This document shows positions 9,946 through 25,259 of a stretch of 32,000 bases of DNA, piece after piece. The notes beneath the pieces were generated by a model that saw only the letters and a list, made by a program, of their open reading frames with translations, searched no databases and had not been told where the DNA came from. Every line of letters begins with the position of its first letter. Position 1 is the first letter of the stretch. Source of the stretch: Candidatus Electrothrix sp. GW3-4 (GTDB lineage Bacteria > Desulfobacterota > Desulfobulbia > Desulfobulbales > Desulfobulbaceae); NCBI RefSeq assembly GCF_037902255.1, contig NZ_CP147990.1, forward strand, positions 360,001-392,000. The letters are read 5' to 3'. Made by a program: the position numbers and the translations under genes.

Positions 9946-10501
9946 GGTTCTCTCTTTTCTGTTGTTCAGATGTTCAACATTGTGCTCAGCTGGATGCTCA
10001 GGATAACAAGGAGGTCTCGTCTGTTGCGCTTGCGGCGTGATGAAGAAATGAGCTCGCGGAGCAGTAAACGGCATTCCTCAACGCAAGAGCGATGGGTTAA
10101 CTCTCCCGTTGATCCTGTTATCGTGAACAGCAGCTGGGAAATGGATGGAACAGAAAGGGCTGTTTCAATCCTTCAATAACCTTGATGGGCCTGCAAAGGA
10201 CAGGCGAGATCTCATCTACGGCTTCTTGAAGGCTGAAACTCTGAGAAAGTTGGTTCAGGAAGAGAAGAGGGAAATGCGCCTGCGATTCGTCCACCCGACC
10301 CGGGGCGGCTCCTTGCGGCACATTCAGTAAGAAAAGTATAATAAAGCAGTCATATGTGTTGGTGTGTTCATAAGATGGTTCTGCAAAATAACTCGCACAG
10401 TATACGGGAAATTACAGGTTTCGTCAAAGTTCTTTGAGTGACAGATGGATTTGTCTTGATTCTAGGTGGTCGTTATGTGGCGTAGAGAATACTTGCGGAG
10501 T

Positions 10502-10613
10502 AAACTTTGATGGTTTGGCAAAAAGTCAAAAAACGGCAAATCGATAACGATAACTCAATGAGTTGCGAGGTGTTTTTCGCAAAACTGGACTTTTTACGAA
10601 ACCATCAACTTTC
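10502..10613. repeat. about 110-bp element bounded by imperfect 26-bp inverted repeats (REP/MITE-like)
   Basis: The left arm is aaactttgatggtttggcaaaaagtc (10502-10527). The right arm is gactttttacgaaaccatcaactttc (10588-10613). The inner 19 nt match 17/19, and there is an inner hairpin TTGCGA..TCGCAA. Confidence 0.45.
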
Positions 10614-10888
10614 CCAGTCTGATAGCTAGCTGAAACAGCACTTTTGAGTACAAATCTTACCCCGACCTGTGTTCCGCTAGCTGCGTGGTTTGATTTTGTG
10701 TTGTGATAACGGAAGGGGGGATCTCTTTTAGCTAATTTTATCCTTTTTGTACTTGTATACTTTGCTATATACTATAATATACCTTTCATTGACGGGTATT
10801 ACTGAGTAACTTTCTTTGGTTTCGGTATCCGTTTAGTGAATCAATATAAGCGGGTACTTAACTATGAGCAGTACTCAACTTTAATCAT

Positions 10889-11476
10889 ATGAATGGATCA
10901 TTGGACTTAGTTGGAACACATGGGACAACTGTATCACGCTACGAATCAATAGGTTCAGATGGATTTAAATGTCGTAATTCTGGTTTACGCGGAGCAGGTG
11001 CATATTTTTGGGTTAAATCTGCTTACGCAGAGGAACTTGCTGTAGGGTGGTATTTAAAATGCATTAAAGCAGGGACGTTCAGTAAAAACCCAGATAAAAG
11101 ATGTGTTGTTATAACGGCATCATTTGATGTGTTACCTGAGCAATATCTTGATATTGAATCAGATGAAGTAAAAAGCATATTCCTTAATCTTATCAAACAG
11201 CATAATGCTGAGGATTCACGCGAATGCAGTGAAAAATTTTATGATTTGTTTATTGAGCTAATGGAAAAAGAGCTTGATGTAATCATTAAGCTATATAAAG
11301 TTCGTGCTTATGCGCCAACTAAAGCGTTACCAAACTGCTACCCTACTCAGCTTGCCGGGTCTCCGCTATGTTATGTAGCAAGAGATTCGCAATGCATTCT
11401 GATAAATGGAGCTAAAACGTTGGAAAACGTGGGGGTGAAAAATGAAAAACAGCGAGAAGGTAAAGGCAGCAGCTAA
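10889..11476 (+). CDS. hypothetical protein, candidate toxin with ADP-ribosyltransferase-like (H-Y-E / PARP / DUF3990-type) N-terminal motifs
   Basis: This 195-aa ORF is the first in an AT-rich three-gene operon. The motifs are LVGTHGTT...IGSDGF...GLRGAGAYFW. No Shine-Dalgarno sequence is visible. The fold assignment rests on motif resemblance only. Confidence 0.55.
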   Translation: MNGSLDLVGTHGTTVSRYESIGSDGFKCRNSGLRGAGAYFWVKSAYAEELAVGWYLKCIKAGTFSKNPDKRCVVITASFDVLPEQYLDIESDEVKSIFLNLIKQHNAEDSRECSEKFYDLFIELMEKELDVIIKLYKVRAYAPTKALPNCYPTQLAGSPLCYVARDSQCILINGAKTLENVGVKNEKQREGKGSS

Positions 11477-11726
11477 ACGAGTTTTTGACAAGCTGAGCAA
11501 GATGGACTCTGAGGCTTTTAAAGCTCTTCTGGAAACACGTACCGAAGGGGATGTATATAAAAGTATGAAAGAGCTTTATTCATTCGATGAGTGTGGAAAA
11601 ATAACCAATCGTTATGACAATAAATTGCGTATGATTTCCTCTATACCTTCGGGTTTTACAGTAGATTCGTCTTCTACTAATGATTACTCTGTAACGACTG
11701 AACCATTATGGGCATTAGCAGCATAA
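11442..11726 (+). CDS. hypothetical 94-aa protein, candidate antitoxin with chaperone-dependent tail
   Basis: The start is preceded by GGGGGTGA. The ORF overlaps the upstream ORF by 35 nt and the downstream ORF by 19 nt. It has a Lys/Glu-rich N-terminal half that looks helical and a Ser/Thr-rich C-terminal tail ending EPLWALAA. Confidence 0.55.
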   Translation: MKNSEKVKAAAKRVFDKLSKMDSEAFKALLETRTEGDVYKSMKELYSFDECGKITNRYDNKLRMISSIPSGFTVDSSSTNDYSVTTEPLWALAA

Positions 11727-12199
11727 CATCACAATTTCAGTTCGTATCATACAAGGTTGACAGACTTCAATTTGATATCAAACCAGATCTGGCCTTGTTG
11801 GCTAGTACCAGAAATCTGCCTGTTGACATGTGGGATATTGTTTTCTCTATTAGACAACCATCCTTCTTTTCTCAGGAAAAAAGTTACGTAGCGGGGCTTG
11901 ATATTAAAATTGAACTGAAAGCTGACAATGAAAGATCAGATGGAGAGTCAGAATCTTTAATCTCGCTATCTGCTGGAATAGCTGGCCTTTTTCAAGTGTC
12001 AGATGAGCGGCTTGAAGCTGGACTAGAAGAGAAAATAGTAAAAAATCATTTTCCTGTTTTGCTACTGCCTTATTTGCGTTCTACTATAACGTCATTATTG
12101 GCTAACGCAGGTTTTACTCCTTTCATATTTCCGTTAATTAATTTGCACAAATTAACTGAAGATGCGCTTAAAGACATCGAAGTAAAGGTGATTAACTAG
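11708..12199 (+). CDS. SecB-like chaperone (stand-alone paralogue, TAC-type context)
   Basis: The 163-aa product aligns by eye with E. coli SecB. [35 protein letters not shown] aligns with [49 protein letters not shown] aligns with TFQIQRIYTKDISF. Confidence 0.75.
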   Translation: [163 protein letters not shown]

Positions 12200-12220
12200 T
12201 ACAGCGCGGCGCAAATAATC

Positions 12221-12976
12221 CTATGCTTTTAACGGCAACCCATTAAATGTCCATTTGTATGGTTTTGCCATTGTCGCATTAAAGTAATCAATAAAGTCGA
12301 GCAATTTGCTCCTGAGATCTTTTTTTGATGTAAAATTACCTCTTTTAATGATTTTCTTAGTAAGAATACCAAACCAAATTTCTACTTGATTGAGCCATGA
12401 ACAGTGTTTTGGGGTATAAACAAAGCGAATTGCATGGTCTTTCTTCCTGAGAAATTCGGCTCTGCTTTTCATTGATTTCAAAATGCCTTGTTTCCCTTTG
12501 ACGCCTAAATTATCTTTTATTTCGCATAATTCACTGACCAACTTGACAAGTGATTCCGACTTATGAGTATTGAGCTGATCAGCCACAAAGACCCACTCCC
12601 GAGTTTCCGGATCGCTTAATATAAGGCTTCGAATATGTTCGCAAAAATCATGTTCGTCCCGAGTGTCTCCTATGCTGGGAGAGACGACTTCACCGGTCAC
12701 TACGTCAAAGTTTGCAATGAGCGAGAGTGTTCCGTGCCTGATGTACTCAAACTCAATCCGCTCCGGCTTTCCCGGCTCTATCTTTTTTGTCGGATTTTTC
12801 CTCTCAAGAGCCTGTATTCCGGTATTTTCATCAATACTGATGGTTCGCCTGCCGTTTATTACCGCCTTTCGGGGAGCTTCGTGGTATGTTTCACAGACAT
12901 CTTTCACTTCTAAAACAAACAGTTCTTCATTGTCATGATTGGGATTGAGCCAATACCGACTATGATGAGGTTTCAC
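12221..12976 (-). CDS. IS630-family transposase, DDE catalytic part (orfB)
   Basis: KPHHSRYWLNP follows the usual FLK..D[LV]KPH junction. The DDE residues lie in ISIDENTG, FVADQLNTH and SWLNQVEIWF. Confidence 0.8.
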   Translation of the reverse strand: MKPHHSRYWLNPNHDNEELFVLEVKDVCETYHEAPRKAVINGRRTISIDENTGIQALERKNPTKKIEPGKPERIEFEYIRHGTLSLIANFDVVTGEVVSPSIGDTRDEHDFCEHIRSLILSDPETREWVFVADQLNTHKSESLVKLVSELCEIKDNLGVKGKQGILKSMKSRAEFLRKKDHAIRFVYTPKHCSWLNQVEIWFGILTKKIIKRGNFTSKKDLRSKLLDFIDYFNATMAKPYKWTFNGLPLKA

Positions 12977-13517
12977 ATCGGTTTCTTTTTAAAAATCGGC
13001 CCACTTGACGGTCCGAAATTCCAGAGGTTATCCCACGCTTATTGCATTCATCCGCCAATTCCCTACTGCTCCATTGAGAAATTGGACGACCGCTTTCTTC
13101 GGGATGCTCCAGTGCAACTGCTAAAATCTGACAATATTGTTCTGAAGAATAAGTTACTGGTGCTCCCGGACGCGGATTATCTTTTAAAACTTCTCGAATA
13201 CTTTTTTCCAACTGATTGGCATTTTGGGGATCAGTCTCTATTTGCATTAAAGTATCTTGGTTGGCCAGCCACTTGTATCTCCAATGTTTAACCTTGTCGA
13301 TACTGCAACTCATGACTTTTGCAATCTTTGAGTTCGGTTTTCCTTTCTCAATCTCCAATATTAAAGAAGCCCGACTTACCTCACGAAAATCAGCTGTTGA
13401 TTGTCGAGCTATTTTTGACAAAATTTCTTTCTGTTGTTCGGAAACAGCAATTGATGGCGATTTGGGTGTAGGCATTTTCGAATCCATGTGTTGCAAGATT
13501 GTTGTCAATATACGCAA
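12960..13517 (-). CDS. IS630-family transposase, N-terminal HTH part (orfA)
   Basis: The ORF carries HTH-type segments (SEQQKEILSKIARQ..., SKIAKVMSCSIDKVKHWRYKW, ...ISDRQVGRFLKR). It ends in the T5A5 run where the frame changes to orfB. Confidence 0.8.
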   Translation of the reverse strand: MRILTTILQHMDSKMPTPKSPSIAVSEQQKEILSKIARQSTADFREVSRASLILEIEKGKPNSKIAKVMSCSIDKVKHWRYKWLANQDTLMQIETDPQNANQLEKSIREVLKDNPRPGAPVTYSSEQYCQILAVALEHPEESGRPISQWSSRELADECNKRGITSGISDRQVGRFLKRNRCETSS

Positions 13518-13766: not shown

Positions 13767-15194
13767 TTACCTCTTTTCCAGTTTCACCCGGTTCTGTTTG
13801 GCATTATAGCCGTTCCTTGTGATGATTTCATGGAGGAGATCAACCCGTCCTGCCTCCGGCACCTCTGTGGAGAACTCCACTGTTTTATAATCGTGCAGCT
13901 TCGGATTCAGCTCGCTGCGAAAGGTGATATCGCCGTTGTAACTGCGGCGCACAGCCACCTTGATGGGCTTGCCGGTGTAATTACGGATGCGTTGGCTGAA
14001 TTCCTTATGCTCATCCCAACCTGACACCCGGTTTTTTACATCCAGCTGGAGCTCCCTGCTGCCCACCTTGTGATAAATGCTGCCCCCTTTGACCTGCATC
14101 CAGATATTATCCCGGAATGTCTTGAGCCTGATCAGTTCAAAGACGACCTCAGGATCAGGACCGAGATTGAGTTCAATGCGATCCCCGATGGGGACATATT
14201 TGATTTCACGCGAGGTGAGGAAACTGAGACCGCCTTGTCCATTGGCCCGCAGCGCCTGCACCCGGCCATTGGGCAGAGGGGTGGTACCCAGCCCTGATGC
14301 AGTCTCGTTTTCCAGGAGGTAGAGTCGTACCAACTCGTCACCATATTCCCTGGGGCGGTAGCGGTATTCCACCTTGACGGGCACCTTGGCCGCTTCAAAG
14401 CTGCGGAGCCGTTTGGCCCAACCATTGGGAATGGTTTCAGTGCCTTCAATGGTGTAGATGAAGTATTCTCCCAACCCCTCTTTGGCTACTTCCTTGGGTT
14501 CTGCCAGCGCTTCATCTTCCATGACAGCACCTAACGAGAAGATTGCTGCGGGAGCCTCCATCATTTGTCGGGCGGCTTTTTGTTTATAGCCCCTGAAAGT
14601 CTGCTCCTCAAGTACTTCTACCTTGCCTGGTGGAAGCTGGGCCAGTTCGGCAATCTTCTCCACCAGATTAATGTTGCCGACAACCAGGCGCACCTGGGCA
14701 TCTTCGTATTCTTCACCGGACTGGTTATGTATCCGGACAAAGCCCTCCAAGCTCAGGAAGGTCTCCTCTGGGTTGGCAATGGCGGTGTAGTCGGCAGACC
14801 AGCTGATGCCAGAGGTGAAATAGCTGATCTCAATCTTCGCTTCCTGTTCCTGCTCACTGGCTACATTCCAATAGAGCATCTGTGGTTTATCATGGGGGAA
14901 GGTGGTGTCCAGCACCTGGATGGAGTGTGCCTTGCCTGGGAACTGGAGTTCCACTGAGGTCGGGTCGATCAGGGTGTTGGCCCAGGAGAATTGCAAGGGG
15001 TTGATACCTTTTTTGAAGCTGATCACCCGGGTTTCGCGGACCAGGGTCAGGTCTTCCGAGTTATAGATGGTGAGTTGCACCGCGTTGCGTTTGGGCACGG
15101 TTGAGAGATCCAGGTTGCGTGCTGTTGCCGTGCTGCCGAAGGATATAATAAAGGGCGTAAGAACAAGCAGGGCGAGAAAGAGTATTCTTTTCAT
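13767..15194 (-). CDS. secreted DUF4139/DUF4140-like (MuiA-type) protein
   Basis: I chose the ATG at 15194, giving MKRILFLALLVLTPFIISFG with a signal peptide. The N-terminal pattern VQLTIYNSEDLTLVRETRVISFKKGINPLQFSWANTLIDPTSVELQF is typical of this family. Confidence 0.65.
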   Translation of the reverse strand: MKRILFLALLVLTPFIISFGSTATARNLDLSTVPKRNAVQLTIYNSEDLTLVRETRVISFKKGINPLQFSWANTLIDPTSVELQFPGKAHSIQVLDTTFPHDKPQMLYWNVASEQEQEAKIEISYFTSGISWSADYTAIANPEETFLSLEGFVRIHNQSGEEYEDAQVRLVVGNINLVEKIAELAQLPPGKVEVLEEQTFRGYKQKAARQMMEAPAAIFSLGAVMEDEALAEPKEVAKEGLGEYFIYTIEGTETIPNGWAKRLRSFEAAKVPVKVEYRYRPREYGDELVRLYLLENETASGLGTTPLPNGRVQALRANGQGGLSFLTSREIKYVPIGDRIELNLGPDPEVVFELIRLKTFRDNIWMQVKGGSIYHKVGSRELQLDVKNRVSGWDEHKEFSQRIRNYTGKPIKVAVRRSYNGDITFRSELNPKLHDYKTVEFSTEVPEAGRVDLLHEIITRNGYNAKQNRVKLEKR

Positions 15195-15199
15195 AGCGA

Positions 15200-16402
15200 T
15201 CACCATTCGTTTTTCATCAGGATATGGAGCTTGCATATCTGCTTGTCCGGTTTGCTTTCAGGCTTTTTGGCTGGCAGATCGACATGGAAGAGGAGATGAT
15301 CCGCATCACTTTTTTCTGCGTCCGGCTTGCCCAGGAGGGTGGTCTCCGGGCCCAGTTCACACTCCACATCCCGTTGATTTTGATAGCCCAGTTCCGCCCG
15401 CAGTTCGCGCAAGGTTTCGCCGATATCAAGGGTGACAGGGCTTTCCTTAAAATTCTCTATCTCATATTTCACGATCAGGTCGTAGTCATATAGATTGCCG
15501 TTAATGCGCTTGCGCTCATTACGATCGATAGTACGCTTGACCACAATATCGCGTGCCACTCCGAGATAGAGGGACATTTCGTCATCCTGAGGAGTGAATT
15601 TTCCCCAGTCCTCACCCACAAAAGCGGTACCGCCATGACCGTCCTCCTGAAAGATGCGGGTCTTGCCAAAGGGCAGGGATGCTTTACCCAGGCCGTTGGT
15701 CGTGTCGTTCTTGAGCACATAGTGCATGGGGATCTTGAGTTTTTTCTTGGCCGCATCAAGATAACCGTATTGGGCCAGGTCTGCGGTGTAGGTCTTTCGG
15801 ACCATGACCTCGGGGTACCTTGTTACCAGGAGATCCTTGGTCTCATCAATCCCTACCGAGCGGGTAAGCTGGTCTCCAAAACCAACCGAGATGCTGCTCT
15901 CTTTGTACTCTTCATTGGCTAGGTTTTTCAGGCGGAGGTATTGAGCAAGGTTAAGCTTTTTTTCATCATGGGTGGCGGTTGCCCTATAGTGAAACTCTTT
16001 CTCCAGTCCGTCCAGGATATAGCTGATGCGTACCTGAGCTGAACCGGAATGGGGGGAGGAAACAGCCCATACCAAGCTATTTTCATTGGGGGGATAGCTG
16101 ACCGACAGGACCTTCACTGCCTGGTCGGGAGTCTCTGAGGTATTCAGGACCCGAAAGATCAGGGAGTCAGGAGAAATACGGGTATTGGCCCAGGAAAAAT
16201 CAACCTGGTTGATGCCCTTGACCAGCGGAACAATGCGTTCTTCTTCTACTAAGGTGGCCTGGGGGTGATCAAGCTGGATCTCCACCCGCTCCCGTACCGG
16301 CAGGGTGATGAGTTTGATGCGCGCCCAGGCCTCAAGCGGGACTATGGGGAGAGCGAGGAAAAGTAGGGCGAAGATGACGTGGGGTCTGGATATGTTTATC
16401 AT
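15200..16402 (-). CDS. secreted DUF4139/DUF4140-like protein, paralogue of the downstream gene
   Basis: I chose the ATG at 16402, preceded by AAGGAA. The product starts with the signal peptide MINISRPHVIFALLFLALPIVPLEAWA. It shares the N-terminal pattern VEIQLDHPQATLVEEERIVPLVKGINQVDFSWANTRISPDSLIFRV. Confidence 0.65.
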   Translation of the reverse strand: MINISRPHVIFALLFLALPIVPLEAWARIKLITLPVRERVEIQLDHPQATLVEEERIVPLVKGINQVDFSWANTRISPDSLIFRVLNTSETPDQAVKVLSVSYPPNENSLVWAVSSPHSGSAQVRISYILDGLEKEFHYRATATHDEKKLNLAQYLRLKNLANEEYKESSISVGFGDQLTRSVGIDETKDLLVTRYPEVMVRKTYTADLAQYGYLDAAKKKLKIPMHYVLKNDTTNGLGKASLPFGKTRIFQEDGHGGTAFVGEDWGKFTPQDDEMSLYLGVARDIVVKRTIDRNERKRINGNLYDYDLIVKYEIENFKESPVTLDIGETLRELRAELGYQNQRDVECELGPETTLLGKPDAEKSDADHLLFHVDLPAKKPESKPDKQICKLHILMKNEW

Positions 16403-16513
16403 GTGCCGTTCCTTGGTGTTGGAGCATACCTGCCATCTCCTCGGCAAATATGTTGGTTCGGACTGCTTTACCGTGTTTTATCCTGTCAGCGTATCGACAG
16501 GAATCTTTCTTGA

Positions 16514-17368
16514 TCAGCTTTCATCCTGATTATTTCCTCTGGGCAGGGTCGTCTTCAGGTAATCTTCGTTGGTCTCAAAAATTGGTTCCACCCCATTTTG
16601 CTGGCGCATCAGGGGGATGACCTTGGTACGCACGCCCATACCTCTGGCATCAACATAGCCGTAATCACGGAGAATTTCCATGATTAGAGGATTGCGGGGA
16701 GAGCGCTGGCCTGCAATCATCTTGGCAATGGTCATGGAGTTTTGCAGGGCTCCCGGACTGATGACCTCCAGCCGATCCGCATAGCCACTGACCTCAATAT
16801 CCACGGACCGCGACCAGTCTCGATGGGCCAAGGCATTGATTACCGTCTCCCGGACCGCCTGCATGGGGTAGAAAAACTCTTTGCCCCGGTGCATGTTTTC
16901 GTCGATGTCATCGTCTTCGCAGGAGATAAAAGGAAGGATCGCTGCTGAGAACTGTTCGATTATCCCCTGATCCACCAGTTCCCGGCGTTTATTCGCCATG
17001 CGCCAGCGCCCCACCAGCGGGCCGTCAAGCACGGTGTCCAGACGGGCTTGGTATTCCTTGTCCCCGCCGGTAAAGGCCATGACCCGCAGTCCGGCTTGGG
17101 GCAGAAATCGTCTCGGGCGGATGCCGAAGCAGACCAGCCCGGCAATGGAACAGACCGTATTGCCCAGCCCGTCTTCCGCCATCAGGCCAAGGCCCAGGAG
17201 ACGTTCGATCCACTGCTCGCGGTTGGTCGGTACTTCCGGGTCTTCAATGATTGCAGCGAGGTAGAAGTTGAGTCGGTCCAGATCCAGGGAATCTATCGAG
17301 GTCCCGGCGACAGGCAGGGTTTCAACGTGGAGCATGCCGCCGCTTTCAAGGAGTTCTGCTTTGCGCAT
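16514..17368 (-). CDS. HATPase_c_4-type ATP-binding putative transcriptional regulator (RecG-C-like), lacking the usual N-terminal AlbA_2 domain
   Basis: The motif AVRETVINALAHRDWSRSVDIEVSGYADRLEVISPGAL...RNPLIMEILRDYGYVDARGMGV is present. The 284-aa product starts inside the 3' end of the upstream SGNH gene. Confidence 0.65.
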   Translation of the reverse strand: MRKAELLESGGMLHVETLPVAGTSIDSLDLDRLNFYLAAIIEDPEVPTNREQWIERLLGLGLMAEDGLGNTVCSIAGLVCFGIRPRRFLPQAGLRVMAFTGGDKEYQARLDTVLDGPLVGRWRMANKRRELVDQGIIEQFSAAILPFISCEDDDIDENMHRGKEFFYPMQAVRETVINALAHRDWSRSVDIEVSGYADRLEVISPGALQNSMTIAKMIAGQRSPRNPLIMEILRDYGYVDARGMGVRTKVIPLMRQQNGVEPIFETNEDYLKTTLPRGNNQDES

Positions 17369-18193: not shown

Positions 18194-18219
18194 AAAAAAA
18201 ATTTAAACGCATGGCGTTT
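18194..18219 (-). terminator. weak hairpin plus T8 tract after the FGE paralogue
   Basis: The minus strand reads AAACGC-cat-GCGTTT followed by AAATTTTTTTT. The stem is short and AT-rich. Confidence 0.3.
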
Positions 18220-18326
18220 ACTCCGCGCTTTAGCACGGCCCTGGGGTCGGCTCCGCTTTTCGACCCTGCATGGCCTTACGGGCGCTCCGTTTTTCTGATG
18301 TTACTTGATCCGGGCCTGGGCTTGGC

Positions 18327-19232
18327 TCACACCTGAACTCGGGCACAACGAAAGCCGAAACTGCCGAGGCGGAGGTCAGGCTCGATCCAGTCCCGGCAGG
18401 CGGAACGGCAGAACCTCGCCTTGCTGAGCCAGGAGCCACCGCGTACAACGCGGTCCTCGTCGGGCTTATCGTCCTCCCAAATACTGCCGTCTTCAGGTGC
18501 GTCGTGATAATTCTCATGCCAAGGATCAGTAACCCATTCCCAGACATTACCCAGCATGTCATAGAGTCCCCAGTCATTGGCCTGCTTTTGTGCAACCGGA
18601 TGAGTGCCGCAGGGATTGCTGTTGAATTGACGATCGTCGAGATATGAGATTTCATAGCCGTTGTCCAGCTCAAAACCTTCCCCGCTGTTCCCGCCGTACC
18701 AAGCAAGAGGGTGAAGGGCAGGGGCGTTGCCGTCACCGATAATGTCTATTGGGCCGGTATACAGAGCAGTGCTGCTCCCTGCCCGGCAGGCGTATTCCCA
18801 CTGGGCCTCGTTGGGCAGGCTCAGCTCCAGGCCGGGGAGTTGCTGATTAATCTTTTGTACGAATTTTTGACAATCCCCCCAGCTTACTGTCTCCACTGGC
18901 CGAACGGGGGATTTAAAATTACTCGGATTCTCTCCCATCACAGCCAGCCAAAGGGCCTGAGTGACTGGGGTTTCGAAGAGCCAGAAACCTTTGCTGATGC
19001 TCACCCAATGCTGCGGTCCTTCATAACCCAAACGCCCTGGTTCATCCTCGGGTGAACCCATGAGAAAGCGACCCGGTCGTATCCAGCGCATCCGTTGGGT
19101 CACCGGTCCGTCTTTTCCCTCCACGGTGAATTCTACCCAGACCCCATAGCTGTCCTGGCCCCAGCCACTGGCCCAGGGGGGCGGGGTGCCGTTGGCAAGA
19201 GGGTGCTGCGCTGTGTTGATCGGTGTGGTCAT
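18327..19232 (-). CDS. stand-alone FGE/SUMF1-type (formylglycine-generating-enzyme fold) domain protein
   Basis: The 301-aa product contains RMRWIRPGRFLMGSPEDEPGR...WEYACRAGSSTALY...GLYDMLGNVWEWV...RGGSW...FGFRCARV. By eye, roughly three quarters of its residues match the C-terminal domain of the upstream 895-aa protein. Confidence 0.8.
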   Translation of the reverse strand: MTTPINTAQHPLANGTPPPWASGWGQDSYGVWVEFTVEGKDGPVTQRMRWIRPGRFLMGSPEDEPGRLGYEGPQHWVSISKGFWLFETPVTQALWLAVMGENPSNFKSPVRPVETVSWGDCQKFVQKINQQLPGLELSLPNEAQWEYACRAGSSTALYTGPIDIIGDGNAPALHPLAWYGGNSGEGFELDNGYEISYLDDRQFNSNPCGTHPVAQKQANDWGLYDMLGNVWEWVTDPWHENYHDAPEDGSIWEDDKPDEDRVVRGGSWLSKARFCRSACRDWIEPDLRLGSFGFRCARVQV

Positions 19233-19248
19233 AGGGAGAATCTATACC

Positions 19249-19267
19249 CCCAGGGTGTTACCCTGGG
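19249..19267 (-). other. perfect 8-bp hairpin in the leader of the FGE paralogue
   Basis: CCCAGGGT-gtt-ACCCTGGG lies 17 nt upstream of the start codon at 19232. Confidence 0.4.
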
Positions 19268-19431
19268 CTTGATACATACAGCCCCGTTGGGGCATTTTGC
19301 TGATCCGGTAAAAAACGACCAGCCGGTGAGGGTTCGCCAGGCATCCGCCGCAGGCTACTAACACACCGGGGGCCATTGTGTTTTGCCATTCAAGTGCGAA
19401 TGGCTTGGAATGTGGCCTGTTCAGGTACGGG

Positions 19432-22119
19432 TCATCCAACCCGTTCGTGAGCTCGGGCACAACGAAAGCCGATATTGTCGTTGCGGTTGTCAGGCTCGTT
19501 CCTGTTCCGGCAGGCGGAACGGCAGTTCCTCGCCTTGTTGTTCCAGGAGCCACCGCGTATAACGCGGTTCTCGTCGGGCTTATCATTCTCCCAAATTTTG
19601 CCGTCTTCAGGTGCTCCATCATAATCCTCATGCCAGGGATCGGCAACCCATTCCCAGACATTTCCTAACATATCATAAAGGCCCCAGTCATTAGCCTGCT
19701 TCAGACCTACCGGATGGGTTCCGGCCCGTTTGTCGTCATACTGCTTTTCTTTCCAGTCCGAGGTATCATAACCGTTATCCAGCTCAAAATTTCTACCACT
19801 GTTGCCTCCATACCAGGCAATATCATCTAAGGCCGGGGCATTACGTTTCCCGATGATTTCAATCTCCCCAGTATACAAGGCTGTACTGCTTCCTGCCCGG
19901 CAGGCATATTCCCATTGGGCTTCGCTGGGTAAGCTGAGGTTAAGTCTTGATATCTGTTGATTAATCTCTTGCACGAACTTTTGACAATCCTCCCAACTTA
20001 CCTGCTCTACCGGGCGGTCAGGGCTTTTAAATTTACTTGGATTCTCTCCCGTAACTGCTTGCCAAAGTGCCTGAGTGACCGGGGTATCAAACAGCCAGAA
20101 GCCCTTGTTGATAGTCACCCAATGTTGCGGTCCTTCGTCATCATAACGTCCCGGTTCATCCTCCGGTGACCCCATCAAAAAACGCCCCGGCGGAATCCAG
20201 CGCATTCGTTGACGCACCGGGCCGTCCTTCCCTTCAACCACAAACTCCGCCCATAGCCCGAAGCGATCCCGGCCCATTGCATCTGCCCAGGAAAAATCAG
20301 GCAAGGTGCAACGGCGCAGGGTGAGCTGTTCGCAGTCGGTTTGTATGCGAAGTTGGTCGGCAGTAGTGGGCAAGGAGAGATGTTCCTGCTGCCCGGAATC
20401 TCTCGCCTGCAAATGATGAATCCTGCTCTGTCCTGCTACAAGATCGTGAGAATCACCATCCACATCCTTTTGCTCAGAAAAAGAATACTGCACAATCCCG
20501 TTGCGGCTCGACAACAGAGCCAAGGGACTGCCGTCCCCTGTCCGGGACAGGGAATGCGGAACAAACTGCAACTCACCCCCTGCCTGCACAGCAATAAACT
20601 TCCTGAGCGGCGCATCCCCACCATCAATCATCCCCGGTTCAAATCCCTCAGGAGGCTGATAGTCCGGCTCATGGCGATGCAGGGCATACACGGTTTGCAC
20701 AAGCTGCTTGCCGATACGAGAATCAGCCCAGAGACGTTGATCAGCCCGCGCTTCAATGCGTTTCAACCACTCCTGATCAGCAGCAACTTCAGCACCCGAG
20801 GCCGCTGCTATTTCAGCACAGAATTCCTGAAAATATTGGCGGGCGTTCTCCCGATCTTGTCCGGGAATACCGTCCAAAGACTCCCTGTCCAGATTCAGCA
20901 GCTCCTCATACCAGATCTCTTCAGGGAGATAGCCCCGCCATTGCCGCAAAATTGCGAGGACCTGTTGTCGTAACGCTTCCGGTTCCTTGCTGATAAAGGC
21001 TTTTCGCAGCTTCTGTGTATATTCAGGATGCAGACTTGCTCCGGCACTGGAGCGGCTGGATATGGCGGGGTGGTTCCAGGTATCAAGCTCAGTTGTGATA
21101 TCCGCATCTCTGCCGAGCAGCCGCCGGACAGCACGTAAAAGGCCCGGCTCAATCCGTATCGCCGGAGAAATCAGGCACAGGAGGCGTTCGCAATGTTTTT
21201 CTCGGTTATCGACAGATTGGGAAATTTTGGTCCAGGGAATGATTTTCCAGACCGAGGTTAACTCCTGCGGAAGATGTGCTCTCCCGAGCGGGCAAAGGGC
21301 CAGAGGACGGCATTCGGCAGCCTGTATTTCCCTGCCGAATGCAAGCCACCATTGCCATAGGCTGCTCTTTCCCTGTATCGATGCTCCGAGATCTCCGGCA
21401 ATAAGTACGGTGCTGCCGGGCGGGGGCAGGCAATACCCTTGCCTGTAATCATCTCTGTTCTGAGGAACTGACAGACCTCTGCCGTCGCGCCAGATTGCCC
21501 GCGATAATCTGTCAGCGGCTATGGTCTGTATAAGCTTTTTGCGGAGATATTGTTGATCCTGCCAGAGGGGGACAAGGCGTATGCTACGGTCTTCTATGAA
21601 CTGGACATGCGGTCCCCAACGACGTCGGCGTTGCCGGGGGAGTTCAGCAAGAAAATGTCCCCGGCATATCCTGCGGACAGCAAGATCAACATCAAGGGCA
21701 TGACCGGTACGTAATGCACTCAGGTGAGAACGGAGGCGGGGGTGGAGTTCGCTCCAGGGTGCAAGCAGGTGCTGCTCAGGTGCTTGCAGCGGACGTTGTG
21801 TCCAGCCCTGATACCCGGTTGAGCCGGTGGAAGATGGGGGAGGAGTTTCCTCCTTTTCTTCGGCAAGGTATTCGTATTCTTCAGGGCGCCAGAAAGGGAT
21901 GTCCGCCAGCGGCTCCTTACTGAATTCGACCTCCTGATTATCTTCAGAATCGGAAAGAGGGGCAGAATACCTTTCTTGCTGAGAGAGGAGAGTTTGCTCC
22001 GGTTGCGGTGCCTGCCAATCGTACTCCAACAGTTCAGCAAGCTCCTGAGCCGCCTCAAGACCTTGACTGCCGAGAATTTCGGCAAGATCGGCTCGACCGC
22101 AAAGCCCTTGGTGTTTCAA
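19432..22119 (-). CDS. large multidomain protein: possible degenerate vWA-like module, helical and beta-rich middle, C-terminal FGE/SUMF1-type domain
   Basis: The 895-aa ORF has a TTG start that overlaps the MoxR stop (cTTGA). VQFIEDRSIRL ... STVLIAGDLG loosely resembles the vWA first strand/MIDAS and the last strand. The C-terminal part of about 275 aa is FGE-type (RMRWIPPGRFLMGSPEDEPGR...RGGSW...IGFRCA). Confidence 0.75.
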   Translation of the reverse strand: MKHQGLCGRADLAEILGSQGLEAAQELAELLEYDWQAPQPEQTLLSQQERYSAPLSDSEDNQEVEFSKEPLADIPFWRPEEYEYLAEEKEETPPPSSTGSTGYQGWTQRPLQAPEQHLLAPWSELHPRLRSHLSALRTGHALDVDLAVRRICRGHFLAELPRQRRRRWGPHVQFIEDRSIRLVPLWQDQQYLRKKLIQTIAADRLSRAIWRDGRGLSVPQNRDDYRQGYCLPPPGSTVLIAGDLGASIQGKSSLWQWWLAFGREIQAAECRPLALCPLGRAHLPQELTSVWKIIPWTKISQSVDNREKHCERLLCLISPAIRIEPGLLRAVRRLLGRDADITTELDTWNHPAISSRSSAGASLHPEYTQKLRKAFISKEPEALRQQVLAILRQWRGYLPEEIWYEELLNLDRESLDGIPGQDRENARQYFQEFCAEIAAASGAEVAADQEWLKRIEARADQRLWADSRIGKQLVQTVYALHRHEPDYQPPEGFEPGMIDGGDAPLRKFIAVQAGGELQFVPHSLSRTGDGSPLALLSSRNGIVQYSFSEQKDVDGDSHDLVAGQSRIHHLQARDSGQQEHLSLPTTADQLRIQTDCEQLTLRRCTLPDFSWADAMGRDRFGLWAEFVVEGKDGPVRQRMRWIPPGRFLMGSPEDEPGRYDDEGPQHWVTINKGFWLFDTPVTQALWQAVTGENPSKFKSPDRPVEQVSWEDCQKFVQEINQQISRLNLSLPSEAQWEYACRAGSSTALYTGEIEIIGKRNAPALDDIAWYGGNSGRNFELDNGYDTSDWKEKQYDDKRAGTHPVGLKQANDWGLYDMLGNVWEWVADPWHEDYDGAPEDGKIWENDKPDENRVIRGGSWNNKARNCRSACRNRNEPDNRNDNIGFRCARAHERVG

Positions 22120-23192
22120 GGGATGGCCTCCAGATTTGCTGCTGTTTCCTCTGTCCTCATATCTTCTGTAGCGGCATCAGGATGCTTTCGCAAGATAAAA
22201 CGTTTGATTTCGGCAAGCAGTTCTTCTTGGGCAGAGTGATCATTCGAGCGTTGTCCGATAACTGCACGGAGTAGGTCCAGGTACTCGGCCTGGCCAGGGA
22301 GAGGGTGCCAATGCTGTTGAGCGGCCTCTTGTCGGTCATCAATCAGGCAGTCAGCAGCTGTTTGCAAAACATTGTTGGAGGTCATTCCCTCAAAATGAGC
22401 CTGACCCCTGCTGATCAGGTGTTCTTTCAGGCGATTGCGTTCCTTGGGAAGCTGTAGATGTAGCACCAGGCAACGTCGGACAAAGGCATCGGGCAGGGCA
22501 CGCTCTTCATTGGTGGTGATAATAACCAGCGGCGGTGTTGATGAGGCCACAACAGGGCGGCCCAGGCCCTGGGGATGAAAGGAATGGGCACCCAAGGCCT
22601 CAAGCAGCCCGTTGGGTACATCTGATTCTGCCTTGTCAATTTCATCAATCAGTACCACGCAGCCATGTTTAGGCTCCCAGCCTTCCGGGTTCTTGGGGAT
22701 GCCGATTCCTGCTTTTTCAGCTCTCCCTTTCGCATCCTCCCAGGCAAAGGCCCACCAGAGCGCACGAGGACGGAGATAATCAGCAGGTGGCAGAAGCTGG
22801 GTGCTGACCTTGCAGGCAGCTGTTTGTTTCTTATCCTCTTTTGCTTCAGAGGAGTTGTCTATGCTCGCTTTAGGTTGGCAGCCGAGTATCTGGGCATCTG
22901 CCAACCGGGCAACCGCATCAAAATGATAGAGGAGATCACGGGATTCAGTTCTGGAGTCCACGGTCTGAGAGATAAAGGCCCGTTGCAGTTCTCCGGCAAC
23001 AGCCTTGGCTAATTGGCTTTTACCTATGCCCGGCTCGCCACGAACCAGAAGAGGGCGTCCTGCTGCCAGGGCAGCATTGACTGCTCGGATCTGATCCCGT
23101 TCAAACTGATGGACTAAGGCGGGCAATCCGGGCTGCGGTACCGAGGATTTGGGTCTGTAAATATGGCCGGGTTGGATTGTAAGAAAGTTCAT
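22116..23192 (-). CDS. MoxR/AAA_5-type AAA+ ATPase
   Basis: The Walker A motif is GEPGIGKS and the Walker B motif is CVVLIDEIDKA, followed by LLEALG and ...IITTNEERALPDAFVRRC. Confidence 0.8.
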   Translation of the reverse strand: MNFLTIQPGHIYRPKSSVPQPGLPALVHQFERDQIRAVNAALAAGRPLLVRGEPGIGKSQLAKAVAGELQRAFISQTVDSRTESRDLLYHFDAVARLADAQILGCQPKASIDNSSEAKEDKKQTAACKVSTQLLPPADYLRPRALWWAFAWEDAKGRAEKAGIGIPKNPEGWEPKHGCVVLIDEIDKAESDVPNGLLEALGAHSFHPQGLGRPVVASSTPPLVIITTNEERALPDAFVRRCLVLHLQLPKERNRLKEHLISRGQAHFEGMTSNNVLQTAADCLIDDRQEAAQQHWHPLPGQAEYLDLLRAVIGQRSNDHSAQEELLAEIKRFILRKHPDAATEDMRTEETAANLEAIP

Positions 23193-23208
23193 GGGAAATT
23201 TAGCGGTA

Positions 23209-24759
23209 TCAGGTGATAAAGTCTCTTAGGGGGCGGTAACGTCTTTGTTCTTCAATGAGATCGTTGTCTCTGCTGAAGGTCAGAAAGACGACATGGGGAT
23301 ACCTCTTTTTTAACGATGCGATACAGTTGGTAGCAGCAGGATTGTTTTCTGCGCCAGGAACGAGCAGGTAATATGTCCTTCTTTCGTCTTCATATGGAGC
23401 TTCTGACTGATATTTCAGTTCATTGTCAATGTATTGGTCAATATCATTATCCTCTTTGCTCATAACCCGTGGCCGAATATCATCACCGATAAAGCGCCAA
23501 CGTATATAATCATCAAATTTTTTTTCCAGAAAGGGATCAGTTACATCTGGAGCTATCCAGTCTGTCAGATGAGATCGAAGATCTTTTGCAAGCTGCTCCC
23601 CGTCCTTATCTCGTCCGGCTTCCGGCTGTTGCGGAAGGCTGAATTCTCCTTCCGGCCAGTCCTGCCCAGGTATTTTTGAGCGATACTTGGCAGCACGCCG
23701 ATCAACACCGGCCATGATGACTTCAGCAACTGTGGCCAATTCTGTCGGTAACGTCTGTAGGGCAACCGTCACATCATCTTTACAGAGATGCAAATCTTCC
23801 ACTACTTTGGGATTAAACAGGACCGGCAGAACATAATGCACTATTGTATTGCATAGGGATACTCCTGCGGCATTATCCTCTATACGCATTTTTCTCCGAA
23901 TTTCTCCAAGGACCGTGAATAATATTTCAATATGGAGTTTCAGTAATTCTTCAGCTACTGGTGTGCAACTTTTTTTACCGCACCACGGCAGGTTAAGTTT
24001 ATCAGCAAGCAGACGTGCCGGACAGCGGCTGTCCTCCTTAGCTTCCATTCCTGAATCACGCAGTATTCTCGCAATAGCATCCTTAATCTCTGTCAGGTAT
24101 TCCTGGCGTTTGTCCAGCCCCAGCTGTTTTTGAAATGCTTCATCCTCAAACATTTTCCAGGTCGGGATAGCATGCAGTTTTTTACCGCTAAAGTTTCCCG
24201 GTACACGGCAAACCAGACCCAAGATTTCATTACCTACAAAGACCGGCATTCCGGATGTACCCTTCCACATGGCTGGATTTTCCGGGTTGCTGGTCACATT
24301 GAGGGAAAAATGATCTGCCCCGTCAGCCATTGATTCCGTGGTGCCGCTGATATCATCAGGTTCTCGTAAATTGTCGTATCGGGTGGCTTTGGAGAACCCG
24401 AGGCTATACCATATCTTGGCGACAGACGGTTTTTTATCCGCAATCATCCCCCATCCTTTTCCTAGCGCCTTTTCAGGTCGTGGGCAGCGAAGCAAAGCGG
24501 CATCCAATTTGCCTTCACCTTCCCAGACAATATCCTCAACGGAGAGGGTGATCCAACCGTTATCTGGATCATATTTGTCGAACAAGTGATGCCAGCGCAC
24601 TTGAATCTCTCCGTTACCTTGTTCCGGTCTGACCGTATGGCGGGCAGTCAGGATCAGATCCTCGGCTACAGGGTAACCCGTGCCGATTTTACCTTCCGTA
24701 CTTCCATCGGTTCCTTGTTTCGTCGGAACAAAGATGGTGATAATAAGATCCTTGTTCAT
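23209..24759 (-). CDS. cytoplasmic trypsin-like serine protease with about 300-aa C-terminal domain of unknown family (VMAP-like position)
   Basis: The catalytic triad contexts are LTARHTV (His), DAALLRC (Asp) and GTSGMPVF (Ser). There is no signal peptide. The C-terminal region looks helical and I cannot assign it by eye. Confidence 0.75.
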   Translation of the reverse strand: MNKDLIITIFVPTKQGTDGSTEGKIGTGYPVAEDLILTARHTVRPEQGNGEIQVRWHHLFDKYDPDNGWITLSVEDIVWEGEGKLDAALLRCPRPEKALGKGWGMIADKKPSVAKIWYSLGFSKATRYDNLREPDDISGTTESMADGADHFSLNVTSNPENPAMWKGTSGMPVFVGNEILGLVCRVPGNFSGKKLHAIPTWKMFEDEAFQKQLGLDKRQEYLTEIKDAIARILRDSGMEAKEDSRCPARLLADKLNLPWCGKKSCTPVAEELLKLHIEILFTVLGEIRRKMRIEDNAAGVSLCNTIVHYVLPVLFNPKVVEDLHLCKDDVTVALQTLPTELATVAEVIMAGVDRRAAKYRSKIPGQDWPEGEFSLPQQPEAGRDKDGEQLAKDLRSHLTDWIAPDVTDPFLEKKFDDYIRWRFIGDDIRPRVMSKEDNDIDQYIDNELKYQSEAPYEDERRTYYLLVPGAENNPAATNCIASLKKRYPHVVFLTFSRDNDLIEEQRRYRPLRDFIT

Positions 24760-24790
24760 TACTCAGTTTTTTATGGGAAAGATTGGATGA

Positions 24791-25105
24791 TCAATCGGGG
24801 CGTTGCCCATGATCAGATACCTGAACAGAGCCGCCATCGGCTTTTTCTGCCTTCAACTTGAGTTTCAACTTCTGGGTAACCGTATCCTTTTTGCTGACAT
24901 CGACTTTGCTGGTCAGCACATAGAATTTGGCGGCCACACCACCTTTTGCCTGTCCTTCTGTGGTAATTTGCAACTCCAGCTCTACGTCTTCCACCGTGAA
25001 CCGAATGTCTTTGTCTTCTCCTTCCCGCTGCGCCTCAGCAAGTTGCGCACGCAACCCCTTGATCATTTCTGCAAGCTCAAGCCGTCCTTGTTCTTCTTCC
25101 GACAT
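24791..25105 (-). CDS. trypco2 (trypsin co-occurring domain 2) family protein
   Basis: I chose the ATG at 25105, preceded by AGGAGG with a 5-nt spacer. The pattern LAEMIKGLRAQLAEAQ...DIRFTVEDVELELQITTEGQAKGGVAAKFYVLTSKVDVSKKDTVTQKLKLKLK fits what I recall for trypco2. Confidence 0.7.
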   Translation of the reverse strand: MSEEEQGRLELAEMIKGLRAQLAEAQREGEDKDIRFTVEDVELELQITTEGQAKGGVAAKFYVLTSKVDVSKKDTVTQKLKLKLKAEKADGGSVQVSDHGQRPD

Positions 25106-25151: not shown

Positions 25152-25189
25152 GAAAAATAAAAAGCCGGAACAGAAAATTCCGTCCCGGC
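25152..25189 (-). terminator. strong intrinsic terminator after hemB
   Basis: The minus strand reads GCCGGGACGG-aatttt-CTGTTCCGGC (a 10-bp stem with two G-U pairs) followed by TTTTTATTTTT. Confidence 0.75.
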
Positions 25190-25259
25190 CTTAGCTCGTT
25201 AGCGATAGCGCCACTTAACAACTCCCGACAGCTCTAGCCGGTACTGATATGCTTAAAAA

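Follow-up and report, generated by a model that had tools for sequence, protein, structure and literature searches.

Three lines of earlier work bear on the locus described here. Kaur et al. (2020; PMC7159879) predicted NTP-dependent conflict systems, among them the MoxR-vWA-VMAP ternary systems, which bring together a MoxR-type AAA+ ATPase, a trypsin-Trypco pair and C-terminal FGS or C-type lectin (CLec) domains and are enriched in multicellular bacteria; the same authors already linked FGS domains with diversity-generating retroelements (DGRs). Doré et al. (2024; PMC10907252) described clade 5A DGR loci, in which the gene of a MoxR-like ATPase immediately precedes that of a long CLec target whose N-terminus lacks annotation, and which also have a short CLec-only target, with Trypco and peptidase genes nearby; the authors report no vWA domain in clade 5A and propose that the CLec target is a sensor relaying via the MoxR ATPase to a peptidase or other effector. 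A preprint (bioRxiv 10.1101/2025.11.14.688446) gives Trypco1 and Trypco2 the common name Pepco and reports that Pepco forms 9-10-mer beta barrels, that a neighbouring serine protease removes its charged C-terminal tail (~2 kDa), and that exactly truncated Pepco kills E. coli, which its authors find consistent with pore formation; these tests used a Streptomyces homologue with an Avs4-fused protease. Here we analyse a 32,000-nt stretch of the genome of the cable bacterium Candidatus Electrothrix sp. GW3-4 (Desulfobulbaceae; contig NZ_CP147990.1, positions 360,001 to 392,000), hereafter the window, in whose coordinates all positions in GW3-4 are given. It holds a five-gene cassette on the minus strand, encoding in order a Trypco2/Pepco-type small protein (g1), a trypsin-fold serine protease (g2), an AAA_5/MoxR-like AAA+ ATPase (g3), a long protein with a formylglycine-generating enzyme (FGE)-fold C-terminus (g4) and a short CLec-only protein (g5). 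The cassette is a degenerate member of the class that had been described computationally (clade 5A and the FGS-DGR link), and its effector pair has been characterized experimentally elsewhere. Our reading, to which we give a probability of about 0.7, is that a cytoplasmic, DGR-linked antigen sensor would signal through the AAA+ ATPase to the protease and on to a pore, and that the diversifier has been lost in GW3-4.

The evidence for a former retroelement lies in the two FGE-type genes, g4 (19432-22119, minus strand, 895 aa from a TTG start) and g5 (18327-19232, minus strand, 301 aa). Both gave strong matches to the FGE-sulfatase Pfam profile (E-values of 3e-50 and 2e-44, respectively), in agreement with the FGE/SUMF1-type domains that a first-pass annotation, made from the sequence alone, had proposed for them; the CLec/FGE-fold domain of g4 spans residues 639-889 (nt 19453-20205). 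Over most of this domain the two genes are 73-84% identical at the DNA level and differ by every kind of substitution. Over the last ~120 nt (19452-19569 in g4) they are identical save at 17 positions, and all 17 are A in g4 and fall on codon position 1 or 2 (P = 5.7e-13 for all 17 mismatches landing on A, with 31 A in 126 nt). Because every mismatch falls on A, we recognize here the signature of a DGR, with an AAC-rich template repeat (TR) and an adenine-rewritten variable repeat (VR). The TR of the former DGR forms the in-frame 3' end of g4 (19452-19569, minus strand), with A at every site that varies in g5 and nine AAC/AAT Asn codons; the VR of g5 (18338-18455, minus strand) equals it at all non-A positions and has 17 of the 31 template adenines substituted, at sites within 18359-18455. 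The translated repeats read SWNNKARNCRSACRNRNEPDNRNDNIGF in g4 and SWLSKARFCRSACRDWIEPDLRLGSFGF in g5.

Related loci, which we number with the prefix L, show that g4 ends in a template and not in an ordinary variable region. The AAC positions of its repeat match the TRs of L007, L006 and L009, not the VRs, and its 3' flank GAGCTCACGAACGGGTTGGATGACCCGTACCTGAACAGG (GAGCTCACGAA.GGGTTGGATGACCCG) is nearly identical to the TR flank of L007 and clearly related to those of the L006 and L009 TRs. The VR-type 3' flank GAGTTCAGGTGTGAGCCAAG is found in g5 and in all VRs, including the VRs of orthologous long targets, so that the two kinds of flank differ consistently (GAGTTCAGG.. after VRs, GAGCTCACG.. 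after TRs). Two g4 orthologues, P0002 (85% identical) and P0003 (75-78%), carry diversified VRs ending ..RVQV, as against the ..ARAHERVG C-terminus of GW3-4 g4 (in place of the ..ARVQV type), which has A at every variable position. Since the orthologous long targets carry diversified VRs, the presence of a TR inside the g4 open reading frame (ORF) is a derived state.

The first-pass annotation had assigned no role to the FGE-type domains; the adenine-specific differences between g4 and g5 now identify them as the template and variable regions of a DGR, borne on a C-type-lectin fold. The closest solved relatives of g5 are PvdO (1e-23) and TvpA (8e-20), both ahead of the FGEs, and Foldseek ranked the relatives of g4 in the same order (PvdO, TvpA, FGEs). 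Only the equivalent of Cys341 is kept from the catalytic pair of human FGE (Cys336/Cys341) in g4 and g5; the Cys336 position, which belongs to the variable set, is occupied by Ser in g5 and by Asn in g4. To judge from these residues and repeats, the domains are ligand-binding CLec scaffolds and not sulfatase maturases. They resemble in this the HRDC-type "Architecture C" DGRs (Wu et al., NAR 2018, PMC5758913), which share the CLec/FGE-fold variable protein, as in TvpA, the second-best solved relative, and which have an HRDC accessory instead of Avd, as do the intact relatives of the GW3-4 cassette. TvpA of Treponema denticola differs in being a surface lipoprotein, whereas g4 and g5 are cytoplasmic and encoded within an ATPase-protease operon.

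What became of the retroelement was revealed by comparison with intact relatives, in which the gene order is Trypco2, protease, AAA+ ATPase, long CLec target (in some followed by an extra short CLec target), HRDC, reverse transcriptase (RT), TR and short CLec target. The window cassette aligns with L007, a locus of the Ca. Electrothrix marina type, at 79% DNA identity in two colinear blocks: window 23194-19445 with L007 11558-15304, ending at the long-target VR, and window 19577-18682 with L007 16941-17857, running from the TR into the short target. The window lacks the intervening 1.6 kb (L007 15305-16940), which hold HRDC and RT, and it is precisely at the repeat that the two alignments overlap. 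The approximate VR x TR junction (19570-19584, minus strand) is like a target-gene flank upstream and TR-like downstream. The simplest history that these alignments suggest is a single homologous crossover between the g4 VR and the TR, which would have removed HRDC and RT while keeping the TR in frame; we favour it because colinearity with L007 breaks at the VR/TR repeat and because the g4 3' flank groups with those of TRs. Both the retroelement and its broken state had escaped the first-pass annotation.

With a TR/VR adenine pattern and CLec targets, the locus has neither the accessory gene (Avd or HRDC) nor the RT of a complete DGR: no YxDD or LTSQ RT motif was found in any of the six frames of the window, and no HRDC gene lies between g4 and g5. 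A search of a protein database with the L007 RT was also negative, in that none of the best 120 of 1498 matches (at least 54% identical) was on the GW3-4 contig, for which g2 and g4 were indexed in the same database. The closest RTs among the matches listed were P0127 (99%), on a Ca. Electrothrix marina contig, and P0130 (83%), on another contig of an Electrothrix metagenome-assembled genome (MAG); two others, P0128 (97%) and P0129 (88%), came from samples other than GW3-4. An RT is present in the relatives L006, L007, L009 and L010, and RT-less cassettes recur in L003, L004 and L005. Doré et al. likewise described degenerate or remote DGR loci without RT or TR beside intact ones, but there the loss is ascribed to transposons and arrays resembling MITEs (miniature inverted-repeat transposable elements), whereas in GW3-4 we see a clean VR x TR recombination with the target ORF left open. 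In L003, the closest relative, a check for the beginning of an HRDC gene behind the long target turned up a MITE-like repeat pair instead, two direct copies of a ~48-nt repeat (GGTAGGGTGGGCAATATTTGTTCATCCAACC.TGTTTTGATAAAAAAG; L003 12740-12916); the pair is similar to the arrays, likewise MITE-like, that have taken the place of DGR parts in Thiohalocapsa. A tentative target-site hairpin lies ~60 nt past the g5 VR (18238-18275, minus strand); it is present in the centroid fold and conserved in sequence with the region downstream of the L003 VR, and the region folds weakly (z = -0.55), compared with the strong folding (z = -3.8) of the equivalent region in L007.

The ~160 nt past the TR are conserved from Electrothrix to gammaproteobacterial loci and form three helices with compensatory changes. 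A covariance model (R1), seeded with four copies including that of the window and searched against 1.18 Mb of related loci, matched 73 of 80 RT-anchored genome loci, nearly always on the strand of the RT and ~150 nt past its stop codon; there was no match in the RT-less L003, L004 and L005. In an alignment of 74 sequences 91.8% of cells are paired, double changes occur in 37 of the 40 pairs, and covariation scored 0.442, as against 0.167 in shuffles (0 of 500 reach the observed score) and 0.03-0.07 with the partners slid. The window copy, a structured DGR RNA 3' element that is now orphaned (19300-19462, minus strand), forms 40 of 40 modelled pairs, a count that is biased by its presence in the seed. 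As to an earlier description, Weinberg's RT-1 to RT-19 motifs are in the literature, and no model in Rfam 15 matched the element at either gathering or E-value thresholds. Further copies were noted in L010 (11164-11326) and L027 (11236-11397). The spacer RNA of the DGR of Bordetella phage BPP-1 offers an analogue for RT recruitment and priming, and by this analogy the element probably recruits or primes the RT of HRDC-type DGRs. Because it follows the TR in g4 and is RT-adjacent elsewhere, we regard the 3' end of g4 as an orphaned TR together with its DGR RNA.

The conservation of the cassette was assessed in two ways. The order Trypco2, ~510-aa protease, AAA_5 ATPase and long FGE gene recurs in six loci (L003-L007 and L009), from relatives of Ca. 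Electrothrix and from Gammaproteobacteria, with a second FGE-fold gene wherever the contig reaches far enough; the neighbourhood was thus found to be conserved, as the first-pass annotation had proposed to check. Counts were then made over the 44 RT-anchored genome loci whose upstream sequence reaches at least 7 kb. Of these, 43 have HRDC, 40 a g3-like ATPase upstream of the RT, 37 a gene like the N-terminal part of g4 (36 having it as well as the ATPase), 39 a CLec gene downstream of the RT, and 11 Trypco2 with a g2-like protease. From these counts we conclude that ATPase, long sensor, retroelement and short sensor are the core, and that Trypco2 plus protease is one of several exchangeable outputs, a view that fits the TIR-bearing members of the family, the fusions of the protease head described below and a paralogous cassette of Ca. 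Electrothrix marina. The latter (L010, 3685-12255 of MAG contig CBEVHG010000023.1) encodes a Trypco2 71% identical to g1, and its protease head, ATPase and long-sensor N-terminus are 26%, 48% and 31% identical to those of the window, as compared with 71%, 82% and 81% for L007. With L007 it shares 97-98.5% identity in the HRDC-RT module (RT 98.5%); either the module was recently copied between two cassettes or one of the contigs is chimeric across the repeat. In L004 (11220-13034) the short CLec target has acquired, at its N-terminus, a response-regulator receiver domain, a fusion hinting at some connection with two-component signalling. The Competibacter cassette (L006, 669-6874) is immediately preceded by genes for an integrase, AlpA and a D5-type primase, and therefore rides on an integrative mobile element; many genes on this MAG contig look frameshifted, probably owing to long-read errors.

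By layout, rather than by RT phylogeny, the GW3-4 cassette matches the clade 5A DGR-MoxR loci, so that its architecture, which the first-pass annotation knew only from the prediction of Kaur et al., had in fact been described already. As in Thiohalocapsa PB-PSB1 DGR8 (PMC10907252), a MoxR-like ATPase is next upstream of a long CLec target, there is a second, short CLec-only target, a Trypco2 protein and a trypsin-like peptidase are next door in the clade, and the host is multicellular. The differences are that GW3-4 has no RT, HRDC or free-standing TR, its TR being fused in frame to the long target; that Thiohalocapsa DGR8 has a helix-turn-helix gene in place of the protease; and that the GW3-4 host is a cable bacterium, a group absent from that paper. 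Our literature search found no paper joining cable bacteria with DGRs, and Doré et al. do not mention cable bacteria. New here are the cable-bacterium host, the clean VR x TR decapitation with the TR inside an open sensor gene, and the covarying RNA after the TR.

The presumed output arm consists of g1 and g2. The trypco2 assignment of g1 (24791-25105, minus strand, 104 aa from an ATG; an upstream TTG would give 116 aa) proved unambiguous, with a match to Pfam Trypco2 (PF19631) at an E-value of 9.5e-21. An alignment of seven orthologues shows an N-terminal amphipathic helix, beta strands of which an invariant QKLKLKLK strand is the last, and then a variable charged tail of ~18 aa. For g2 (23209-24759, minus strand, 516 aa; locus tag WGN25_01720), the Trypsin_2 profile scored below its cut-off in the window protein itself (17.9 against 27.6 bits) and matched 43 of 45 members of its family. 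The triad His41, Asp86 and Ser169 is invariant over 45 homologues, and the AlphaFold (AF2) model (predicted local distance difference test, pLDDT, 86) gave Foldseek matches to HtrA1, SplA, DegQ and chymases at a probability of 1.0; on these three grounds the trypsin fold suggested earlier for the N-terminus is secure. The fold occupies residues 1-212 and is followed by a mostly helical, confidently modelled domain (~215-516) without a family match. The first-pass annotation had been unable to assign this last part, and Pfam gave no family for it either; nor did the VMAP domain for which it was to be checked turn up, the VMAP families having no Pfam match in g2 or its 44 relatives. We also considered whether this C-terminal half was the part shared with caspase and STAND proteins of Electrothrix, and rejected the idea, as BLASTP shows that it is the N-terminal protease domain that is shared (67%). 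The protease head of g2 is 67% identical in P0042 (Electrothrix sp. AUS4, residues 1-211) and P0033 (Electrothrix sp. AR1, residues 1-260), and such a head is fused to a caspase in one Electrothrix MAG and to a STAND NTPase in another; among cable bacteria the g2-type protease is thus an effector head that gets shuffled.

The pair invites comparison with the Pepco-protease module. In both, a small Trypco protein is encoded directly upstream of a trypsin-like serine protease (in GW3-4 with a gap of 31 nt and an invariant triad), and in the small protein an amphipathic helix at the N-terminus and beta strands are followed by a C-terminal tail that is charged and disordered. By this analogy g1 is a predicted latent pore effector. 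The first-pass annotation had named no substrate for the protease; with Trypco1/2 reported to be a beta-barrel pore that a protease activates (10.1101/2025.11.14.688446) g1 becomes the candidate, although we only infer that g2 cuts it. The two modules differ in that the protease used in the tests forms the N-terminal head of an Avs4 STAND sensor, whereas g2 is a separate protein; in that the sensors in GW3-4 would be CLec proteins and the NTPase is a MoxR-like AAA+; and in that the cleavage site is not obviously conserved in g1.

The link between sensors and output would be g3 (22116-23192, minus strand, 358 aa). It matched Pfam AAA_5 (7e-11, 42.7 bits against a cut-off of 22) and has a Walker A motif GEPGIGKS, with K57 as its lysine, and a Walker B motif VVLIDEID; the bpMoxR sub-model scored 20.5 bits, under its cut-off, and the nearest solved relatives are the AAA modules of midasin. 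The earlier MoxR/AAA_5 call stands, with AAA_5 above its gathering score and the bpMoxR sub-family model below its cut-off. The N-terminal ~550-aa module of g4 is conserved (1318 representative homologues in 1.84 billion proteins) and confidently modelled (AF2 pLDDT 85-95, compared with 73.5 for g4 overall), with an alpha/beta core at residues ~130-300 that carries a DxS...GD pattern. Pfam assigned this module to no family in the window protein, in 22 close or in 45 diverse relatives, the exceptions being lone marginal matches to VWA_CoxE and VMAP-M8; some of the diverse relatives have TIR domains. A profile of the core searched against PDB sequences found no vWA, only chance matches to purple acid phosphatase. 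In a Foldseek search with the whole of g4, FGE-fold matches dominated, and the first match of another fold was the vWA domain of ANTXR1 (6cx1_E; E-value 0.02, template modelling score 0.44, probability 0.99). The degenerate vWA-like module that had been suggested for g4 thus found no profile match and one weak structural one, a hint, short of proof, that the core may be vWA-like.

Combining these observations, we propose the following sequence of events. A ligand would bind g4 and/or g5 through a face once written by the DGR; g3, which is translationally coupled to g4, would remodel in an ATP-dependent manner and so relay ligand binding to g2; and g2 would thereby be activated, its private helical domain serving for docking. 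The protease would then trim the charged tail of g1 after the invariant KLKLKLK strand, turning g1 from a latent beta-barrel oligomer into a membrane pore, so that the infected cell would die and the rest of the clonal filament would be spared. At present g4 would have a template-coded Asn "germline" binding site and g5 would keep its last diversified VR; diversification is probably now off, and the repertoire of GW3-4 is most likely frozen. Of all this, our data show the domain identities, the invariant triad, the synteny, the TR/VR signature, the deletion junction and the RNA element; the signalling order, the cutting of g1 by g2, the part played in defence and the end of diversification are inferred.

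Several points weigh against this proposal. The direction of signalling is a model, and MoxR-CLec cassettes of this type have not been the subject of any experiment. Pepco has a conserved Ile before its cleavage site that has no obvious counterpart in g1, where KLKLKLK is followed by A, V or P, and the protease tested with it, Avs4-fused and from Streptomyces, is not of the family of g2. Neither the N-terminal module of g4 nor the C-terminal domain of g2 has a family assignment by sequence comparison. PADLOC 2.0, which had been put forward as a check for a known defence system, recognizes no complete one at the cassette and gave partial matches only, to the protease regions of LmuA, HamA and Avs1b (those of g2 being confined to the protease heads of these proteins) and to the Walker A regions of IetA and TRIP13. 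As to the loss of the diversifier, an RT less than ~54% identical to our query could sit elsewhere in the GW3-4 genome, given that the best 120 of 1498 matches were considered, and both TR and RNA element are fully intact (40 of 40 pairs, with the window copy in the seed alignment and the count biased accordingly); this intactness fits either a very recent deletion or continued use.

Continued use would mean a DGR active in trans, with an RT and accessory protein encoded elsewhere using the 3' end of g4 (TR plus RNA element in the g4 mRNA) to diversify g5, so that g4 would be at once sensor and germline template. The TR retains all its adenines along with the intact RNA fold, further RT-less relatives exist (L003, L004 and L005), and in Thiohalocapsa RT-less loci have been reported to be diversified in trans (PMC10907252). 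We nevertheless think such activity unlikely: none of the RT matches considered (at least 54% identical) lay on the GW3-4 contig, in 73 of 80 loci the RNA element adjoins the RT of that locus, which suggests coupling in cis, and the ordinary diversified VRs of the orthologous long targets indicate that a TR inside the ORF is derived, not designed. Quite unlikely, too, is the fuller version, in which the in-frame TR and the intact RNA element are kept because the g4 transcript still serves as DGR template for an RT elsewhere, g4 is both germline sensor and donor for g5, and, independently of this, the 160-nt RNA is an undescribed class that recruits HRDC-type RTs. The loss of HRDC and RT might also be sought in the assembly, VR and TR being repeats of ~130 nt that could have been collapsed. 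This is very improbable, as two copies would differ at ~17 positions, the source contig is 4.64 Mb long, and an independent short-read assembly (Logan, SRR28154589) spans the junction and matches the window at 100% identity over 14.3 kb.

Other alternatives concern what the proteins do. A strict MoxR-vWA-VMAP system, with g4 as the vWA and g2 as the VMAP component and with FGE domains that are effector or decoy modules without a link to a retroelement, would account for an AAA_5 ATPase whose neighbours are a large protein of several domains and, with Trypco2, a trypsin protease, for the DxS...GD pattern of the g4 core and for ANTXR1 as its first non-CLec structural match; the GW3-4 cassette also shares with these systems (PMC7159879) the trypsin-Trypco pair, the C-terminal FGS/CLec domains, the DGR association and a multicellular host. 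We find it quite unlikely, since g4, g2 and ~90 relatives have no vWA or VMAP profile match beyond single marginal ones (E > 0.02), VMAP-C/M and vWA thus being undetectable by profile and vWA hinted at by structure alone; the core profile finds no vWA in the PDB, bpMoxR stays under its cut-off, the FGE domains bear the DGR signature, and Doré et al. also have no vWA in clade 5A. The placement among NTP-dependent conflict systems made by the first-pass annotation is therefore broadly right, with a cable-bacterium host and a kept synteny, whereas strict membership of the ternary class is unsupported. It is likewise quite unlikely that the cassette is not concerned with immunity at all and is instead a module of the multicellular filament for ligand sensing or kin recognition (of self or environmental molecules), with proteolysis as a regulatory output. 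No ligand is known for it, it sits amid housekeeping genes (hemB, an NtrY/NtrX-like two-component pair and a GDSL lipase) and not in a defence island, PADLOC finds no system, and the short target of L004 is fused to a receiver domain; against this, Trypco2/Pepco is a toxic pore once cleaved (10.1101/2025.11.14.688446), the protease domain of g2 is most like the heads of the defence proteins LmuA, HamA and Avs1b, members of the g4 family have TIR domains, and the Competibacter copy is on an integrase/AlpA/primase element. Barely credible is an enzymatic role for the FGE-type proteins, as formylglycine-generating, PvdO-like or EgtB-like oxidases that would modify a substrate of the cassette. The FGE-sulfatase Pfam scores are strong and there are partial NCBIfam matches to PvdO, GldK and EgtB, but the latter are all far under their cut-offs, no sulfatase is found among the scanned neighbours, and the active-site alignment with human FGE led us to discard this reading, the Cys336 equivalent being Ser or Asn at a hypervariable position in a region rewritten by adenine mutagenesis.

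The physical description of the cassette in the first-pass annotation held up throughout. All five co-directional minus-strand ORFs were recovered with the lengths and positions it gave, and the same five products were called independently on a Logan contig identical over 14.3 kb; each of the motifs it singled out (LTARHTV, DAALLRC, GTSGMPVF, GEPGIGKS and VVLIDEIDKA) is present in the translations. The intergenic gaps from g1 to g5 are 31, 16, -4 and 199 nt, the negative value being the 4-nt overlap of the g3 stop with the TTG start of g4 (..CCTTGAAAC..) that had been noted before. No signal peptide had been seen in any of the five proteins, and hydropathy agrees, with no hydrophobic N-terminus or transmembrane-like stretch (19-residue Kyte-Doolittle mean at most 1.58). 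The upstream neighbour is hemB, as shown by a Pfam ALAD match; the terminator reported after it was recovered as a terminator-like hairpin with a 14-pair stem and a T-rich tail (25161-25192, minus strand), which isolates the cassette from upstream transcription, and a scan for hairpins likewise recovered the hairpin and T8 that close the cassette (18204-18220, minus strand). The absence of a nearby sulfatase gene was also borne out among the neighbours scanned. Contig L002 (SRR28154590) corresponds to window 20479-23975 at 99.9% identity, with two single-base gaps that break the g4 call and are either an assembly error or a real variant. Downstream (16514-17368 and 13767-16447, both minus strand) are a HATPase_c_4 protein, this domain being a Schlafen/AlbA-type regulator tail, a DUF4139 protein and a paralogous, unannotated, secreted-looking protein; these neighbours share a 40-nt repeat (copies at 14972 and 16180), and no link to the cassette was seen. 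Farther on, a low-GC region (10000-13500; 38-43% compared with ~54% elsewhere) holds a DDE_3 (IS630-type) transposase ORF and a second, overlapping ORF (12221-13517, minus strand), which probably make up an insertion sequence unrelated to the cassette.

The locus illustrates a route of DGR decay in which one VR x TR crossover cleanly removes the RT and leaves the target gene open, and the covarying RNA after the TR, present in 73 of 80 loci, is a handle on template choice and priming by HRDC-type DGRs, which have no biochemical model. GW3-4 also provides a natural frozen pair, with one template-encoded and one diversified sensor site beside a complete ATPase-protease-pore arm, and close relatives that keep the RT; this offers a ready contrast for reconstitution, of intact with decapitated cassettes and of naive with diversified sensors. 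The class is hereby extended to cable bacteria, centimetre-long clonal filaments in which sacrificing one infected cell for the rest makes sense. DGR-diversified CLec sensors combined with MoxR ATPases and death effectors come closer than anything else in bacteria to an anticipatory, antibody-like receptor repertoire.

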